64,000 nt of DNA from a virus (lineage: Duplodnaviria; Caudoviricetes): IMG/VR virus record IMGVR_UViG_3300037467_003067, positions 64,001 to 128,000 of that record. One strand, written 5' to 3'. The notes under the pieces are model-generated. The model had not been told where the DNA came from and did not search any database. It worked only from the letters and a program-made list of their open reading frames with translations. Position 1 is the first letter of the stretch; each line of letters starts with the position of its first letter. Shown here piece by piece: positions 5,807 to 46,180 of this stretch. A program made the translations under genes and the position numbers.

Positions 5807-7282
5807 ATGGATATTAATGCTAGATTTTTGAATGAAGCCCGCGAAATCGAAGCTCAGTGGAGCCGAACCGGTCTTCTCGACGGAATTAACGATCGCTTCG
5901 TTCGTTCAACCACTGCCGTTCTTCTTGAGAACCAGAGGCTCATCAACGAAGTAAGCACCGACACCAGCGATATCGCTCAGTTCAAGCGAATCTCGATTCC
6001 CTTGGTCCGACGTATCTACCCCCAGCTTATCGCTAACAAGATCGTATCTGTTCAGCCGTTGCTGGGTCCGACCGGGTTGGTCTACTACCTCCGCTTCCGT
6101 TACAGCAGCAACAAGGGCGCTACCCGTGGTGCTAGCAACAACGGCGGCTTCCCCGGTGACGATGTCAACACGCTGATGCAGCGTGCCTCCGGTGATGCCA
6201 ACCTCGACAATTGGTACACCCACCAGTTCGTTCCCAACGAGGTCACCTCGACCGATGCCGGTAGCGACACTGTGGCTGTCTACGCTCCCCTGGAGCACAC
6301 CCCGATCCTCGGCGGAACCATGACGGGTACGGTTTATGTCGGCACCACCGCCGTCCAGACCTTCGTCGTCCTCGAAAATGGTAACTTCGTCTTCACCGCG
6401 ATCGGCTCGCCGACCACCTACGTCAACGTCAGCGGTGCCGCCAGCGGTACGATCACGGCTGGCTCGGGTGCCTCGCTGAACCTCACCACTGGTGAATTGT
6501 CGTTGACATTCAACAGCGCTCCTAGTTCCAATTATGTCGTAGTTAATTATGAATATAATATGGAATGTAATCAAGATCTCCCGGAGATCAACCTCGTGAT
6601 CGAGTCCGAGGAAATCGCCGCTAAGACCCGTAAGCTGAAGGCTGTTTGGAGCTACGAGGCTCAGCAGGATCTCCGATCCCAGCACAACCTCGACGCCGAA
6701 GCCGAACTGACCGCCGTCTTGGCTCAGGAAATCAACCTCGAAATCGATCGTGAGATTCTCACAGACTTGCGCAATAATGCCGGAACCGTGGCAGCATGGG
6801 ATTTTAATACCGCGCTAGGCGATACCATCAAAGAAAAATATGAAAGCTTGTACGTAAAAGTAGTTGAGCTTTCCGCCGTCGTTCACCGTAAGACCCTCCG
6901 TGGTGGCTGCAACTGGCTCGTTACGTCTCCTGAAGTCGCCTCGATGTTCGAGACCGCGACCGCTGGATTCGCCCCGACCCCCAGCGAAACCTTCACGACC
7001 TCCCTCGGTGTCCAGTACGTCGGAACTATCAACAGCCGATGGCGCTTGTATAAGGACCCCCTCTTCCCGCAGGGTCAAATCCTCGCCGGGTACAAGGGTG
7101 ATAGTTACATGGATTCTGGTTATTTCTATTGTCCATATGTTCCTATGACTCAGACCCCGGTCGTCCTTGATCCCGAAAGCTTTTGCCCACGTAAAGGTAT
7201 CTTAACTCGGTACGGGAAGAAGTTGCTTCGCGAGGGAGCAAAGTTCTACGCGAGACTGAGTATTGCTAACTTCATCATCTAA
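5807..7282 (+). CDS. gp23: major capsid protein (T4 gp23-like) with a beta-rich insertion
   Basis: AVLLENQ, VSVQPLLGPTGL, AKTRKLKAVWS.E.QQDL, EINLEIDREI, FYCPYVP, TRYG motifs. Confidence 0.96.
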   Translation: MDINARFLNEAREIEAQWSRTGLLDGINDRFVRSTTAVLLENQRLINEVSTDTSDIAQFKRISIPLVRRIYPQLIANKIVSVQPLLGPTGLVYYLRFRYSSNKGATRGASNNGGFPGDDVNTLMQRASGDANLDNWYTHQFVPNEVTSTDAGSDTVAVYAPLEHTPILGGTMTGTVYVGTTAVQTFVVLENGNFVFTAIGSPTTYVNVSGAASGTITAGSGASLNLTTGELSLTFNSAPSSNYVVVNYEYNMECNQDLPEINLVIESEEIAAKTRKLKAVWSYEAQQDLRSQHNLDAEAELTAVLAQEINLEIDREILTDLRNNAGTVAAWDFNTALGDTIKEKYESLYVKVVELSAVVHRKTLRGGCNWLVTSPEVASMFETATAGFAPTPSETFTTSLGVQYVGTINSRWRLYKDPLFPQGQILAGYKGDSYMDSGYFYCPYVPMTQTPVVLDPESFCPRKGILTRYGKKLLREGAKFYARLSIANFII

Positions 7283-7656: not shown

Positions 7657-8010
7657 ATGTTCCGAGTCAGATGTCCGCAATGCAGTAATGAGAGAGAGGT
7701 AAAGGTGAAGAAGCCTTGGATGGTAGGCGCTGAACCATACGAGAAGATCTGTAAGTCATGCTGCCAACAGGGTAAAGAGAAGACCGAAGAACACCGAGCT
7801 AAGCTTTCAGAGTCGATCAAAGCGACACAGACCGAGGAAGTGCTAAACCGGAAGAGCCAATACAATCAAGATCATCCGGAAGTTTGGAAAGGTAAGCTTG
7901 TTGCCGGACAAGGGGGAGGGTGGAACAAAGGGTTGTCTCTCCCTGCGCGTGACGAGGAAACTCGTCAGAAAATTTCCAAGTCCATGAAGAACAGGAGAAA
8001 GAACAAATGA
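7657..8010 (+). CDS. Zn-ribbon plus NUMOD3-like DNA-binding protein
   Basis: Two CxxC pairs; KTEEHRAKLSES and WNKG..DEETRQKISKS motifs; SD AAGGAG. Confidence 0.7.
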   Translation: MFRVRCPQCSNEREVKVKKPWMVGAEPYEKICKSCCQQGKEKTEEHRAKLSESIKATQTEEVLNRKSQYNQDHPEVWKGKLVAGQGGGWNKGLSLPARDEETRQKISKSMKNRRKNK

Positions 8011-9119
8011 ACATTACCGAATTCAAAGAGGTTTACAAGAGATTCCAGTCCCGAGATCGAATTACGATTCAATGTGATCGTCCCAACTGCCTGCGGACTG
8101 AATCCCTTAACAAGGATTCCGCAATGGGAAACATCGACCGAAACGGGGAATTCCGTTGTCGCCAATGTTCCTTTACCGATGAAGGGAAAAAGCGGATATC
8201 AGCAGCGACTTCATACAAACGATCCGATGAAGTGAAACAGAAGATGTCGGTTTCTAAGAAGAAGATGTACCAAACAGAAAAGGGGCAAGAAATGCGGAAG
8301 CATTTATCTCGGGCGGCTGCTAATCAACATGCAAATATGAACATTGAAACAACTAGGAGAAGAGGTCTCTTTCCATCAAAGAAGAATAATGACTTCAGGG
8401 TATATGGATCTTCATACGAGTTGAAGGCAGCTATCCTTCTGGAAGCTGACGATTTGGTCTTGAGCTACCAGTCTCAGGTTTATTATGAGATTGAGGAGCG
8501 TGCTCGAAGTATGGACCTTATTATTTATTATAAGGATGGAAGAAGATTGGCTGTTGAGATTAAGGCGAAAGCTCGTCTTCACGAAGAATCTGTTGTCGCT
8601 CAAATCAATGACGGCAGAAATTATGCCAAGTCTCAAGGATATGAGTTCGTCGTTTGGACCGAACAAGACCTGGGCTTCAAAAGCCCGCACGAGGCAACCA
8701 AATGGGCAGATGAGTACATTTCCAAGATGACTTCCGTTGATTATGTGAAAATCAGAAGACAGAGGAATGCCCAAAAGGCGGTAAAACATTACCACGAGAA
8801 ATTGAAATCTCAGATCCAGGTGTATTGTTCTTATTGCGGCGAAGACCATACGCTCAGAGAAGAGCAGTATCTAGATAACATCGAAAAGAACGGCCGGTAT
8901 ATCTGCATTAAAGAAAATGGAGCGATTGTGGGGAGTCGGTCTAAGGTGGACCGCAACCCCTATCATGCCGAGGGCAAGAAAAAGTGCAGTGGGGAATGTA
9001 AATTGGTCTTGCCCCTGGAGGACTTCAGCGTGAGCAACAAGGCGACCGGACAGAGGTGTAGTCAGTGCAAGAAATGTCGTGCGGCAAGGGCGACGAAGAA
9101 ATACAGGGAAAAGGAGTAA
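8007..9119 (+). CDS. putative homing endonuclease (NUMOD3-like repeats, TnsA-like PD-(D/E)XK domain, Zn fingers)
   Basis: SSYE...MDLIIYYKDG..AVEIK...FVVWTE; several CxxC motifs. Confidence 0.7.
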   Translation: MNITEFKEVYKRFQSRDRITIQCDRPNCLRTESLNKDSAMGNIDRNGEFRCRQCSFTDEGKKRISAATSYKRSDEVKQKMSVSKKKMYQTEKGQEMRKHLSRAAANQHANMNIETTRRRGLFPSKKNNDFRVYGSSYELKAAILLEADDLVLSYQSQVYYEIEERARSMDLIIYYKDGRRLAVEIKAKARLHEESVVAQINDGRNYAKSQGYEFVVWTEQDLGFKSPHEATKWADEYISKMTSVDYVKIRRQRNAQKAVKHYHEKLKSQIQVYCSYCGEDHTLREEQYLDNIEKNGRYICIKENGAIVGSRSKVDRNPYHAEGKKKCSGECKLVLPLEDFSVSNKATGQRCSQCKKCRAARATKKYREKE

Positions 9120-38219: not shown

Positions 38220-38321
38220 GTCCAAAATTAAAAATTTGTGGTTTCGATTCCAATATATAACTTAAGGTAGGACCATGGTAATAGCAAAGTGGGTATTGGG
38301 ATGAAGGGCAAATCATCAGGA

Positions 38322-39509
38322 ATGGATCATTTCTTAAGCGGATTGAAAACCTGGTTGGAGGCAACCGAATCTTACGTTGCCAAGAAGGTCGACCCCGCAT
38401 TGATGACGTGGGACGAATTCTGGCAATTGGTCAATCCTCAGTACAAGAGTCATTCTTCGGACGCCTATGACTATTCGCTCGAAGATTACGGCATGCAACA
38501 CAAGAAGGAGGATTATCCCACGCTCCTCTTCAGGAGGAAGATTTCTGGCATCACTTTCGAATTCCGCTTGAAGAAAGAGGATCGATATCAGTGGAAATTC
38601 GTCAAGACCGATCAGGATGGCGAACCGGTTCGAATCAACGGCGAACTCCAATATTATACGCCCGAGGAATTAGAACGATTCGGCAAGCAAAGATACGCCT
38701 ACAGCTTTGCGGTATTCGATGGCGATCAGCAGGTTGCCTTGGCGCAAGACGAGTGGGGATGTTTGCTGTTTGCGGTCGCGCGAGAATATCGCGGTTTTGG
38801 TCTGGGACCGATGCTTGCCAAGATAGCATGGGAAGCAGAGCCGGGTAAGGACACAGGAGGATGTACTCCGGGTGGAGCCGCCACGACCAAGAAAGCCTAC
38901 CAAGAATTCGTCCGAGATTATTTGAAAAAGGGTTTTTATTCTTACCTGGTCCGCGAAGGACTCTTGACTGCCGAAAAGGTCAAGGCGATCATTGCGAGCG
39001 CCAAGCTTTCCCCGCCCAAGGAGAATTCCAGGGTTGACCTTGGGACCAATGACCCCAAAGACTTGCTCCTGTATGCCGAGAATGGACACTTCATCCTCTA
39101 CAATCGCAAATTAAAAGATTTGCTGGACCAGGGAGATGAGGAACATTATTACTACTGGTATGAGAAGTGTATCAAGGGAACTTCCTTTGCTGGTGGCGGC
39201 TATGCTACCTCGGACCGACTCTTCCTTCATCAACTCGGCGGCGATACTCCGAACATCAAGAAGTTCATGTTCAATCTGGCACTGAGCTACTGTCGCCAGG
39301 AGAATGTTCCGCTTCATGTTTACAATGACGACATCGGCTTGGTTGATCCGGCGACGATGGAAGTCAATGGCAACTTGGTCACCTTGAAGACGGCTCCGAT
39401 CGATTACAGGGCGTGGGCTTTGCAGGAGAAAACGTTCAGGCGGTCTTTCGATAGGTACCAAGAATTCAAATCAAGATTGTTGGAGCTAGCTGAAGTCAAA
39501 TATAGGTAA
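38322..39509 (+). CDS. GNAT-like acetyltransferase with capsid-targeting-like N-terminus
   Basis: V..EYRGFGLG (acetyl-CoA motif A), TPGG; LKTWLEATES. Confidence 0.65.
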   Translation: MDHFLSGLKTWLEATESYVAKKVDPALMTWDEFWQLVNPQYKSHSSDAYDYSLEDYGMQHKKEDYPTLLFRRKISGITFEFRLKKEDRYQWKFVKTDQDGEPVRINGELQYYTPEELERFGKQRYAYSFAVFDGDQQVALAQDEWGCLLFAVAREYRGFGLGPMLAKIAWEAEPGKDTGGCTPGGAATTKKAYQEFVRDYLKKGFYSYLVREGLLTAEKVKAIIASAKLSPPKENSRVDLGTNDPKDLLLYAENGHFILYNRKLKDLLDQGDEEHYYYWYEKCIKGTSFAGGGYATSDRLFLHQLGGDTPNIKKFMFNLALSYCRQENVPLHVYNDDIGLVDPATMEVNGNLVTLKTAPIDYRAWALQEKTFRRSFDRYQEFKSRLLELAEVKYR

Positions 39510-39580
39510 GTAACTTGAAATTCTACCAATTTATCATCTAAGTATACTACTATAATTTTAACTCGAAAGGAGTGGTAGGA

Positions 39581-40555
39581 ATGGATGAGAAATTATTAAG
39601 TATTAAAGAAGCAGCTAAGTTGTTGAATGTGTGCGAGAACACGCTAAGGGATTGGGACATTGAAGGCAAGTTGCCTGCGGCTCGGTCCAAAGGTGGTCAT
39701 CGTCGTTATAGTCTGGATCAGGTCCGTGGATATCTTGATAAAAACCCGCCCAAAGAAGAACCTATGACCAAATCGATCTCAGAGACCAAACATCTGGATC
39801 AGATGATCGAAGTTTGGGAAAAATCTGGGATGTTGTCTGATCTGGATAAGGAAGAAAAAGGAGTTATGGCAGTTCTTCTTGAAAACGCAAAGCTTGCCAG
39901 TGGACTCAATACCAATCCGTTGCTTTCGACAAGTCAATTAGTCTGGTTGACACGGGAAAGTTGGATGCGATGTCGATTTCGCAAGATGGTATCAGTCCAA
40001 CCACTCTTGGGACCGTGTGGGCTTGTATTTTTTTATAATAATACTCATAAATCTGCTCCTGGTCACATAGACTCAGATGCGGTAGCCTCTAAAACCTTGA
40101 AATATGATTTTAAATTATTTACCAAGGCAAAATTTGAATCTATCAAGGAAGTCTATGCTGATACCTTAGCCATGGGATTGGAAATACATATTTTCGAACA
40201 TCTTCCCAAACTCAGTTACGGTAAAATTCAGGATGTCCTAGCAATCAATACTTTTGCTGTTAAGTTTTCCGAGATTTATGACTACATCATAGCCCCCGAG
40301 CATTTAATTGAAGATATGGAAAAGTGTCCAGCATTTGAAGGTCTAGATTTATATGGGATTAACTTGTGCCTTGATCCTGAAACTTTCGAGCCACGGGCGG
40401 CTGCAGGGCGATATCCCAAGAATACATTAACGCTTCCTATTTTCGCTCCCTTTATCACAGTCTTCGACACGGGGTGTTGTCATGTGAATGGCACCATGCC
40501 GGTCTTAATGAGAGCGGGATGGCTAGACCAAAAGAAAGAAGATAATCCGAAGTGA
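39581..40555 (+). CDS. MerR-type HTH fused to a degenerate gp23-like capsid domain
   Basis: LSIKEAAKLLNV..NTLRDW..EGKL....GGHRRY, then AVLLEN, VSVQPLLGPCGLV and LDPETFEPR matching the capsid gene. Confidence 0.8.
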   Translation: MDEKLLSIKEAAKLLNVCENTLRDWDIEGKLPAARSKGGHRRYSLDQVRGYLDKNPPKEEPMTKSISETKHLDQMIEVWEKSGMLSDLDKEEKGVMAVLLENAKLASGLNTNPLLSTSQLVWLTRESWMRCRFRKMVSVQPLLGPCGLVFFYNNTHKSAPGHIDSDAVASKTLKYDFKLFTKAKFESIKEVYADTLAMGLEIHIFEHLPKLSYGKIQDVLAINTFAVKFSEIYDYIIAPEHLIEDMEKCPAFEGLDLYGINLCLDPETFEPRAAAGRYPKNTLTLPIFAPFITVFDTGCCHVNGTMPVLMRAGWLDQKKEDNPK

Positions 40556-45340: not shown

Positions 45341-46180
45341 TTAGCGGATAGAATATCTCAAACTGCCGTTGATCGCTTTCGCGATTGCTCTGATGTCGCT
45401 TTGGTACAGTCCAGCATAGTTGAACGGTCCAATCTCGACGATAACGAACCCACGACCTGGGACTTCACCCACATCCATGATGTAGACCGGGTAAGGACTC
45501 CAACACGACGCCGCTTCCTCTGCGAAGCATGCTGCCCGGTCGTCGAACCCTTCCATCGGGTCGCAGAATCCATTGCTCATGTACTGACTGCCCGAGGCGA
45601 CCTTCTCGTTCACTATGATGAATCGCCATTCATAGACGATCTTCTGGGGGGCTGAAACGATGATCTCCGTCGCCTCAGGAACGTAGCGACGGAGAGTCAT
45701 GTCGTTGCTCCACGTCCTCAGGTTGGTCTTACGCACCAAAGTCCCGGTGAAGGTCTTTTCGTTGTCATTAGGTCGAATGAATACGACATCATCTTTCCCG
45801 TGCTGGGAGTAGAGGTAATCGACCAATTCAGAATTGTCCAAGGCTCCCAAGGTTGAGAAATAGGGATTCTCTGGAAGGACGAACGGCTTCAATTGCTTGT
45901 AGTAATTTTTGCAACTAAAAATCAGTGGATCGTACCAGGCAAATGGCTGAGGTAGGGACTTTTCCTGCTGCCTGATGTCCAGGAGCGTGTTGATCGAGCC
46001 GTAGTAGACGACCGGTTCCTTCCCCTTGAGGTTACTCAAGAAGGAAAGGTCGGAATCGTCGAATACAATGACCTCACAGCCGAGCTCCTGGAGCAGGTAG
46101 CTGAGACGCTGGGGGCAATTGCGGTCGTTCTGGTATTGGACGGCTTCGATGAGCCAAGTTGGAGTATTCATGATGACCAC
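45341..46180 (-). CDS. ATP-grasp domain protein (DUF4343-like)
   Basis: VFIRP...K.FTG, EWRFII, MDVG......IVE....AGLY. Confidence 0.75.
   Translation of the reverse strand: MVIMNTPTWLIEAVQYQNDRNCPQRLSYLLQELGCEVIVFDDSDLSFLSNLKGKEPVVYYGSINTLLDIRQQEKSLPQPFAWYDPLIFSCKNYYKQLKPFVLPENPYFSTLGALDNSELVDYLYSQHGKDDVVFIRPNDNEKTFTGTLVRKTNLRTWSNDMTLRRYVPEATEIIVSAPQKIVYEWRFIIVNEKVASGSQYMSNGFCDPMEGFDDRAACFAEEAASCWSPYPVYIMDVGEVPGRGFVIVEIGPFNYAGLYQSDIRAIAKAINGSLRYSIR

Follow-up and report, generated by a model that had tools for sequence, protein, structure and literature searches.

BldC and the IS607 transposases are the closest described relatives of the DNA-binding part of the protein considered here. BldC (PDB 6AMA/6AMK) is a free 68-aa protein that occupies adjacent 9-bp direct repeats head to tail (PMC5859096), and the left end of an IS607 element contains phased 9-bp repeats to which the N-terminal domain of TnpA binds (PMC6188088). 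The rest of the protein is related to the capsid proteins gp23 and gp24 of phage T4. In T4 gp23, the A domain is located at the capsomer axis, the first 65 residues are cleaved off, and the insertion domain reinforces the capsomer and makes extensive intra-capsomer contacts (PMC9958956). The same HK97 fold has been exapted outside virions in the encapsulins, including the truncated, A-domain-only Family 4; the survey of these proteins mentions no HTH or DNA-binding fusions (PMC8346489). In AcrIIA15 and related anti-defence proteins, an autorepressing N-terminal helix-turn-helix (HTH) is coupled to a C-terminal mimic domain (PMC10901769). It is also known that capsid proteins trigger host defences (PMC9712102) and that DSAD1 and the tail tube compete for DSR2 (PMC11087589).

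The window, a stretch of 64,000 nucleotides, belongs to a viral record of 299 kb that is 59% complete (G000). At 39581–40555 on the plus strand it contains a gene of 324 aa in which an HTH is fused to an HK97-fold body; the ORF is backed by homologues, its start methionine is the same as theirs, and its ribosome-binding site, AAGGAG, is at 39567–39572. The GC content of the gene is 42%, against 48% in the window, 50% in both neighbours, and 54% in gp23, which may be a mark of transfer from a more AT-rich relative. The cognate major capsid protein gp23, which represents the source lineage of the body, is encoded at 5807–7282 on the plus strand (Pfam Gp23, E 4.5e-83). The first-pass annotation placed the fusion gene 32 kb from the head genes, and the measured distance to gp23 is 32.3 kb. 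The gene upstream of the fusion (38289–39509) matches phrog_29287, whose function is unknown, and the downstream neighbour is convergent. The only recurring neighbour seen around the fusion is an R2K ATP-grasp gene, located within 5 kb of it in two genomes (45341–46180 in the window and L005:12257–13084). Directly 3′ of gp23, a TnsA-like endonuclease gene is found (8007–9119), and relatives have other putative homing endonucleases in this place. The same protein is also found on a contig of 585 kb. Among named gp23 proteins, the nearest is that of LR756511, a 595 kb uncultured phage (75%); related gp23 genes occur on 371 IMG/VR contigs, and the best 80 of them show an identity of about 80%.

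An HTH of about 55 aa had been noted at the N terminus, and residues 5–55 (39593–39745, plus strand) indeed match Pfam HTH_17 with an E-value of 5.6e-12 and MerR with 7.7e-9 (35.7 bits, cut-off 28.2). The label "MerR-type" is correct at the superfamily level; however, the coiled-coil helix is absent, and the nearest proteins are BldC and the DNA-binding domains of IS607 TnpA. The HTH helix stops at residue 54 and is followed by a variable linker predicted with low confidence (residues 56–67, 39746–39781, plus strand; pLDDT low at 62–66, identity 19% over residues 53–72), and the long dimerisation helix is missing. BldC is the best solved structural match (Z 8.4, rmsd 1.2 Å, 52 aligned residues). 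It shares with the fusion a head fold that lacks the coiled coil of MerR, direct repeats that include an A/T tract, and several interface residues (V17, W25, L5, and G38). Unlike BldC, the fusion has repeats 20–24 bp apart and an attached 250-aa capsid fold, and the guanine-reading Arg30 of BldC aligns with its Asp24. The best named phage and plasmid matches are the N-terminal domains of IS607 TnpA transposases, 44–58% identical to the head, and the helically phased direct repeats upstream of these transposases appear to resemble the predicted operator described below. Unlike IS607 TnpA, the fusion has no serine recombinase domain, tnpB, or element ends, and the HK97 body stands in the place of the catalytic domain; a search for a resolvase/serine recombinase domain in the protein gave no match. 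The protein differs from a classical MerR regulator in the lack of a coiled coil and in having direct repeats with a separate inverted copy instead of a spacer palindrome. On the features tested, the protein belongs neither to the classical MerR regulators nor to IS607 TnpA, Gp23, or gp24. A PADLOC match to mad1 covers only the HTH, and the Mad1 publication examined does not describe autoregulation. The HTH tree (51 columns) gave no resolution.

The alignment of the C-terminal part to gp23, made by eye in the first-pass annotation, is reproduced by BLASTP (E 2e-10, residues 79–161 against 18–104). The family profile matches the gp23 profile at 99.5–99.9% (E 5e-23 or better) over 241 colinear columns, which include the pro-region, and matches the single gp23 sequence at 97%. 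The exaptation of an HK97-fold domain proposed earlier is supported by the fold checks: AlphaFold with the family alignment gave a pLDDT of 91 and a pTM of 0.83, and all the PDB matches listed by Foldseek are HK97-fold capsids or encapsulins. The best structural match in the whole library is T4 gp24 (PDB 1YUE; Z 10.5, rmsd 3.8 Å, 198 aligned residues), so that a gp23-like fold of the C-terminal region is indeed predicted. No match to Pfam Gp23 (PF07068) over the cut-off was obtained for the target protein, and its relatives P0122, P0121, P0126, and P0249 exceed this cut-off. The ESM Atlas structure search returned only HTH look-alikes or weak rows, and its feature search gave Gp23 at 0.83, which is a lead only. 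The prediction of a body homodimer scored 0.28 against a mark of 0.42 and is evidence in neither direction; gp23 folded from its single sequence (pLDDT 34) was unusable.

The body retains the A and P domains and the E-loop of the HK97 fold, and all its parts are on the plus strand. The BLASTP and profile alignments place the homologue of the gp23 N-terminal pro-region and the following helix at residues 68–133 (39782–39979). The AlphaFold model and profile alignment show a short E-loop without the insertion domain, a P-domain strand, and the spine helix at residues 134–208 (39980–40204), a reduced A domain at residues 209–285 (40205–40435), and the final P-domain strands at residues 286–315 (40436–40525). 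Three of the four motif pairs cited earlier are in register with gp23, and the fourth, LDPETFEPR, is not. This motif, at residues 264–272 (40370–40396), precedes strands that match gp23 425–444, whereas its gp23 counterpart (454–462) follows them. Seven of the nine residues are identical, a level above chance (reached in 0 of 150 shuffles), and the motif is conserved in the family. In the intermediate P0122 it sits as an insert behind an intact gp23-like strand. Given the shuffling result and the P0122 insert, the motif is best read as a hairpin that was apparently duplicated or moved into the A domain, with loss of the original.

The absence of the capsid insertion domain, noted from the start, appears in the profile alignment as a gap of about 155 residues. 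Also lost are part of the P-domain helix (about 11 residues shorter after the strand), the P-domain hairpin, the last gp23 strand, and much of the A-domain helix and loop. The presumed cleavage glutamate, placed by reference to the prohead-protease site of T4, is present in 80 of 81 cognate gp23 proteins against 10 of 50 family members, and the pro-region homologue of the fusion has not retained this site. Since the insertion domain, elements of the A and P domains, and the cleavage site are gone, we infer that the body probably no longer builds a lattice. Its identity with gp23 is only about 20%, and it contains aromatic residues specific to the family.

The fusion is not a singleton. A search for the same architecture revealed 52 further full-length homologues with 34–50% identity, nearly all with the HTH, and a search with the body alone revealed 81 representatives at E below 1e-10. 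The mean pairwise identity in the family is 77% for the HTH, 20–50% for segments of the body, and 19% for the linker. Both parts are under purifying selection, with dN/dS of 0.04–0.07 for the HTH and 0.27–0.29 for the body in the three unsaturated pairs of the L003/L009/L022 trio; most other pairs are saturated. The carriers belong to a clade of phages of roughly 0.5–0.6 Mb, and the neighbours of the gene vary from genome to genome. The gene is accessory, as it is missing from a complete 533 kb relative and from the 595 kb record; these two large records carry the call, since partial records, including 17 partial gp23 relatives that lack the family, cannot prove absence. A pattern scan found no family members in GTDB genomes, and none were found in named phages. 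The HTH is absent from 11 of the 86 full-body representatives; one such gene viewed in context is complete and has an operator score of 0. In a quick tree of the body, members of the target family group together on their own (SH-aLRT 99), and the P0119 group falls elsewhere, with kin without the HTH (94); the branches of this tree are long, and long-branch effects should be kept in mind.

Repeats similar to AAAWCTACYA were found in 14 loci at about −58 and −37 from the start, with an inverted copy over the ribosome-binding site in nine of them. The direct repeats are 20–24 bp apart, and their distances to the start are fixed despite unrelated neighbours. In the window, the motif scan places repeat 1, the best match of this copy, at the −35 position (39518–39528, plus strand), repeat 2 at 39542–39552 (plus strand), overlapping a TATAAT at 39551–39556, and the inverted copy between the ribosome-binding site and the start codon (39573–39583, minus strand). 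The window copy is weaker than those of the family (22 against up to 44); its repeat 2 is weak and shifted, and the exact consensus pattern misses it. The motif trained without the window (score 304 against 160–175 for shuffles) places only one paired site of G000 above the window's promoter. When one group was left out at a time, all 12 independent loci outscored at least 320 of the 322 control promoters. The sole control promoter that outscores the window's operator contains an inverted repeat upstream of a 497-aa gene (G000:C1, about 157150–157250).

In the complete 572 kb genome G001, the exact paired pattern occurs once, at the fusion gene. Only one more promoter with a high score was found; it belongs to a second, divergent HTH-gp23 fusion of this genome, which was outside the training, and it scored 38.1, with none of the 322 controls higher. 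The head-operon and gp23 promoters score at background, and single sites show no genome-wide enrichment; as G000 is only 59% complete, further operator targets may be missing from the data. Of three IS607-type upstream regions, two fall within the top 1–2% of controls and one does not, and the operator repeats appear to resemble IS607 left-end motifs. Repeat 2 ends in ACTATA, which these phages use as a general promoter element and which is also located upstream of the head operon; therefore, the operator overlaps the promoter. A sigma-70 scan found no promoter for the fusion gene, and no stable motif emerged when general promoter motifs were sought de novo in G000. Judging by the position and conservation of the repeats, the protein probably represses its own promoter.

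Accessory copies and fragments of gp23 arise repeatedly within the clade. The second fusion of G001 (about 462.4–463.3 kb; also L017:6351–7346, minus strand) is 331 aa long, is located 6 kb from gp23, and has three operator copies over the promoter and start, so that cross-regulation is possible. P0249 (L005:13532–14152, minus strand; 2.6 kb from a target-family gene) and P0250 carry an HTH on the gp23 A domain only, with a length of 206 aa, an architecture paralleled by the Family 4 encapsulins; the operator is not common to them. P0130 (L024:2541–3845) and P0119 carry an HTH on a near-intact gp23 without the insertion domain (434 aa) and keep the presumed cleavage site, and their close kin P0131–P0134 have no HTH. 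At least two HTH-gp23 fusion events are plausible from these comparisons. Shortened gp23 paralogues without an HTH occur among the relatives as well. In four loci, HTH-less gp23 paralogues or N-terminal fragments are found 0.4–2.7 kb downstream of the fusion (L004:11319–11987, L002:3824–4612, L003:3336–3839, and L022 from 6730 onward). Dispersed mini-genes contain gp23 pieces of 25–70 residues: L258, L260, L263, L265, and L266 in G006, L259 in G005, L276 and L281 in G004, L278 in G003, and L280 in G007. Most of them end in a basic stretch followed by RSIDDPW or a variant; the tag has 11 exact coding matches in G006 and none in G000 and G001, and the fusion protein does not have it. One tagged gene resembles the end of a 626-aa head-operon protein. 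In three relatives, the same HTH class is also joined to a T5orf172/MUG113 domain, in a gene that lies about 4 kb downstream of gp23 (L230:1120–1857; L241), and the operator is not common to the one scored. Another HTH_17 protein of G001 (L029:1415–2179, minus strand; 254 aa) has an uncharacterised helical C-terminal part.

We propose, with the chances a little short of even, that the fusion is an autorepressed capsid mimic wired like AcrIIA15. Its winged HTH was probably captured from an IS607-family element along with the left-end repeats, and would bind the repeats over its own promoter and start, switching off its own expression. The gp23-derived body would be a soluble HK97 module that does not form a lattice and is the working part of the fusion. 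It may engage a usual binding partner of the capsid protein, most likely a capsid-sensing defence protein of the host, or otherwise the head proteins assembling in a co-infecting relative. When the partner ties up the body, operator occupancy would drop and more protein would be made; without the partner, the loop would keep a potentially assembly-poisoning protein scarce.

On balance, we lean towards a function of the body beyond that of a regulator, because a repressor for which no target other than itself is visible should have a second job, and the persistence of HTH-less bodies suggests that it is the body that carries it. Of the readings offered in the first-pass annotation, the decoy for capsid-sensing defences fits best once autorepression is added to it. 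The architecture of AcrIIA15 and host sensing of virion proteins make a capsid mimic the most coherent reading; the likeness to AcrIIA15 is a functional analogy only, since there is no homology and the HTH is of another class. The main weakness of the mimic is that a faithful decoy should retain the sensed surface, yet the body has diverged far from gp23, unlike the gp23-fragment mini-genes of the clade, which stay close to it. The low identity fits equally well with a protein that is purely a regulator.

Such a regulator, in which the HK97 body took the place of the IS607 dimerisation domain and acts as a scaffold for oligomerisation or as a sensor, seems to us unlikely, though it has to be taken seriously. 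As a sensor it might respond to free gp23, scaffold, or chaperonin, with itself and neighbouring or unseen genes as targets. The HTH is much more conserved than any segment of the body, direct repeats two helical turns apart with an inverted copy suit a multimer, and BldC-like heads are often fused to sensor domains. The aromatic residues specific to the family hint at a domain that has been repacked and is self-contained, and the operator shared with the second fusion gene of G001 could be cross-regulation. However, the operator was not found at the head genes or the other promoters scanned, which also speaks against the earlier idea of a regulator sensing capsid assembly. The downstream neighbours are not conserved, the next gene in the window is convergent, and bodies without the HTH persist.

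It is improbable that the fusion is a minor head protein, gp24-like or internal, which assembles together with gp23 and anchors DNA within the shell. The whole HK97 fold is retained, with T4 gp24 as the best match, the N-terminal fusion would point inward (by analogy with the T4 pro-region), the fusion is 1.7 kb from gp23 in one genome, and ACTATA precedes the head operon too. The minor subunit or tether suggested by the first-pass annotation is nevertheless disfavoured. Unlike gp23 and gp24, the fusion is accessory, HTH-bearing, and encoded outside the head cluster, with the lattice elements listed above gone and the maturation glutamate seldom kept; moreover, two large relatives, one of them complete, do without the gene, and a tether needs no operator on its own promoter.

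Still less probable is a matchmaker between DNA and proheads, in which the HTH would tag the locus that encodes it and the body would dock on proheads, so that genomes with the gene are packaged preferentially. There is one unique site per genome, the gene is patchy and variable in position, and small terminases and the PICI packaging redirector use the same HTH superfamily; yet the repeats coincide exactly with the promoter and the ribosome-binding site, an arrangement typical of a repressor, and no linkage to terminase genes was seen in the loci. A neutral relic, left by an IS607 element that inserted into a gp23 copy undergoing decay, would account for the TnpA-like head, the operator-like IS607 left ends, and the low GC content, but is highly improbable, given the dN/dS well below 1 in both parts, the intact frames across 34–50% identity, the confident fold, and motif spacing retained despite synonymous saturation.

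The HTH and capsid parts each belong to known superfamilies, and the joined protein is apparently undescribed: in a literature search that mostly did not cover subscription journals, no publication on an HTH-HK97 fusion was found. The HK97 fold is known as a builder of shells in capsids and encapsulins, which, unlike the fusion, are in the latter case cellular, enzyme-associated compartments; no publication found places it within a DNA-binding protein. As the protein is small and well folded and has a predicted operator, the central claims can be tested without phage culture. More broadly, we suggest only tentatively that the clade may repeatedly turn its capsid protein into non-assembling mimics directed against hosts or rivals, with at least two, and possibly four, of them wired to a captured IS607 head and its repeats for a feedback supply on demand. 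If the body is a mimic, it would represent a new class of counter-defence and a bait for capsid-sensing immune proteins; should it be a sensor, transcription would be linked to head assembly. On either reading, the end of a transposon and a duplicate of a capsid gene can be combined into a new gene.
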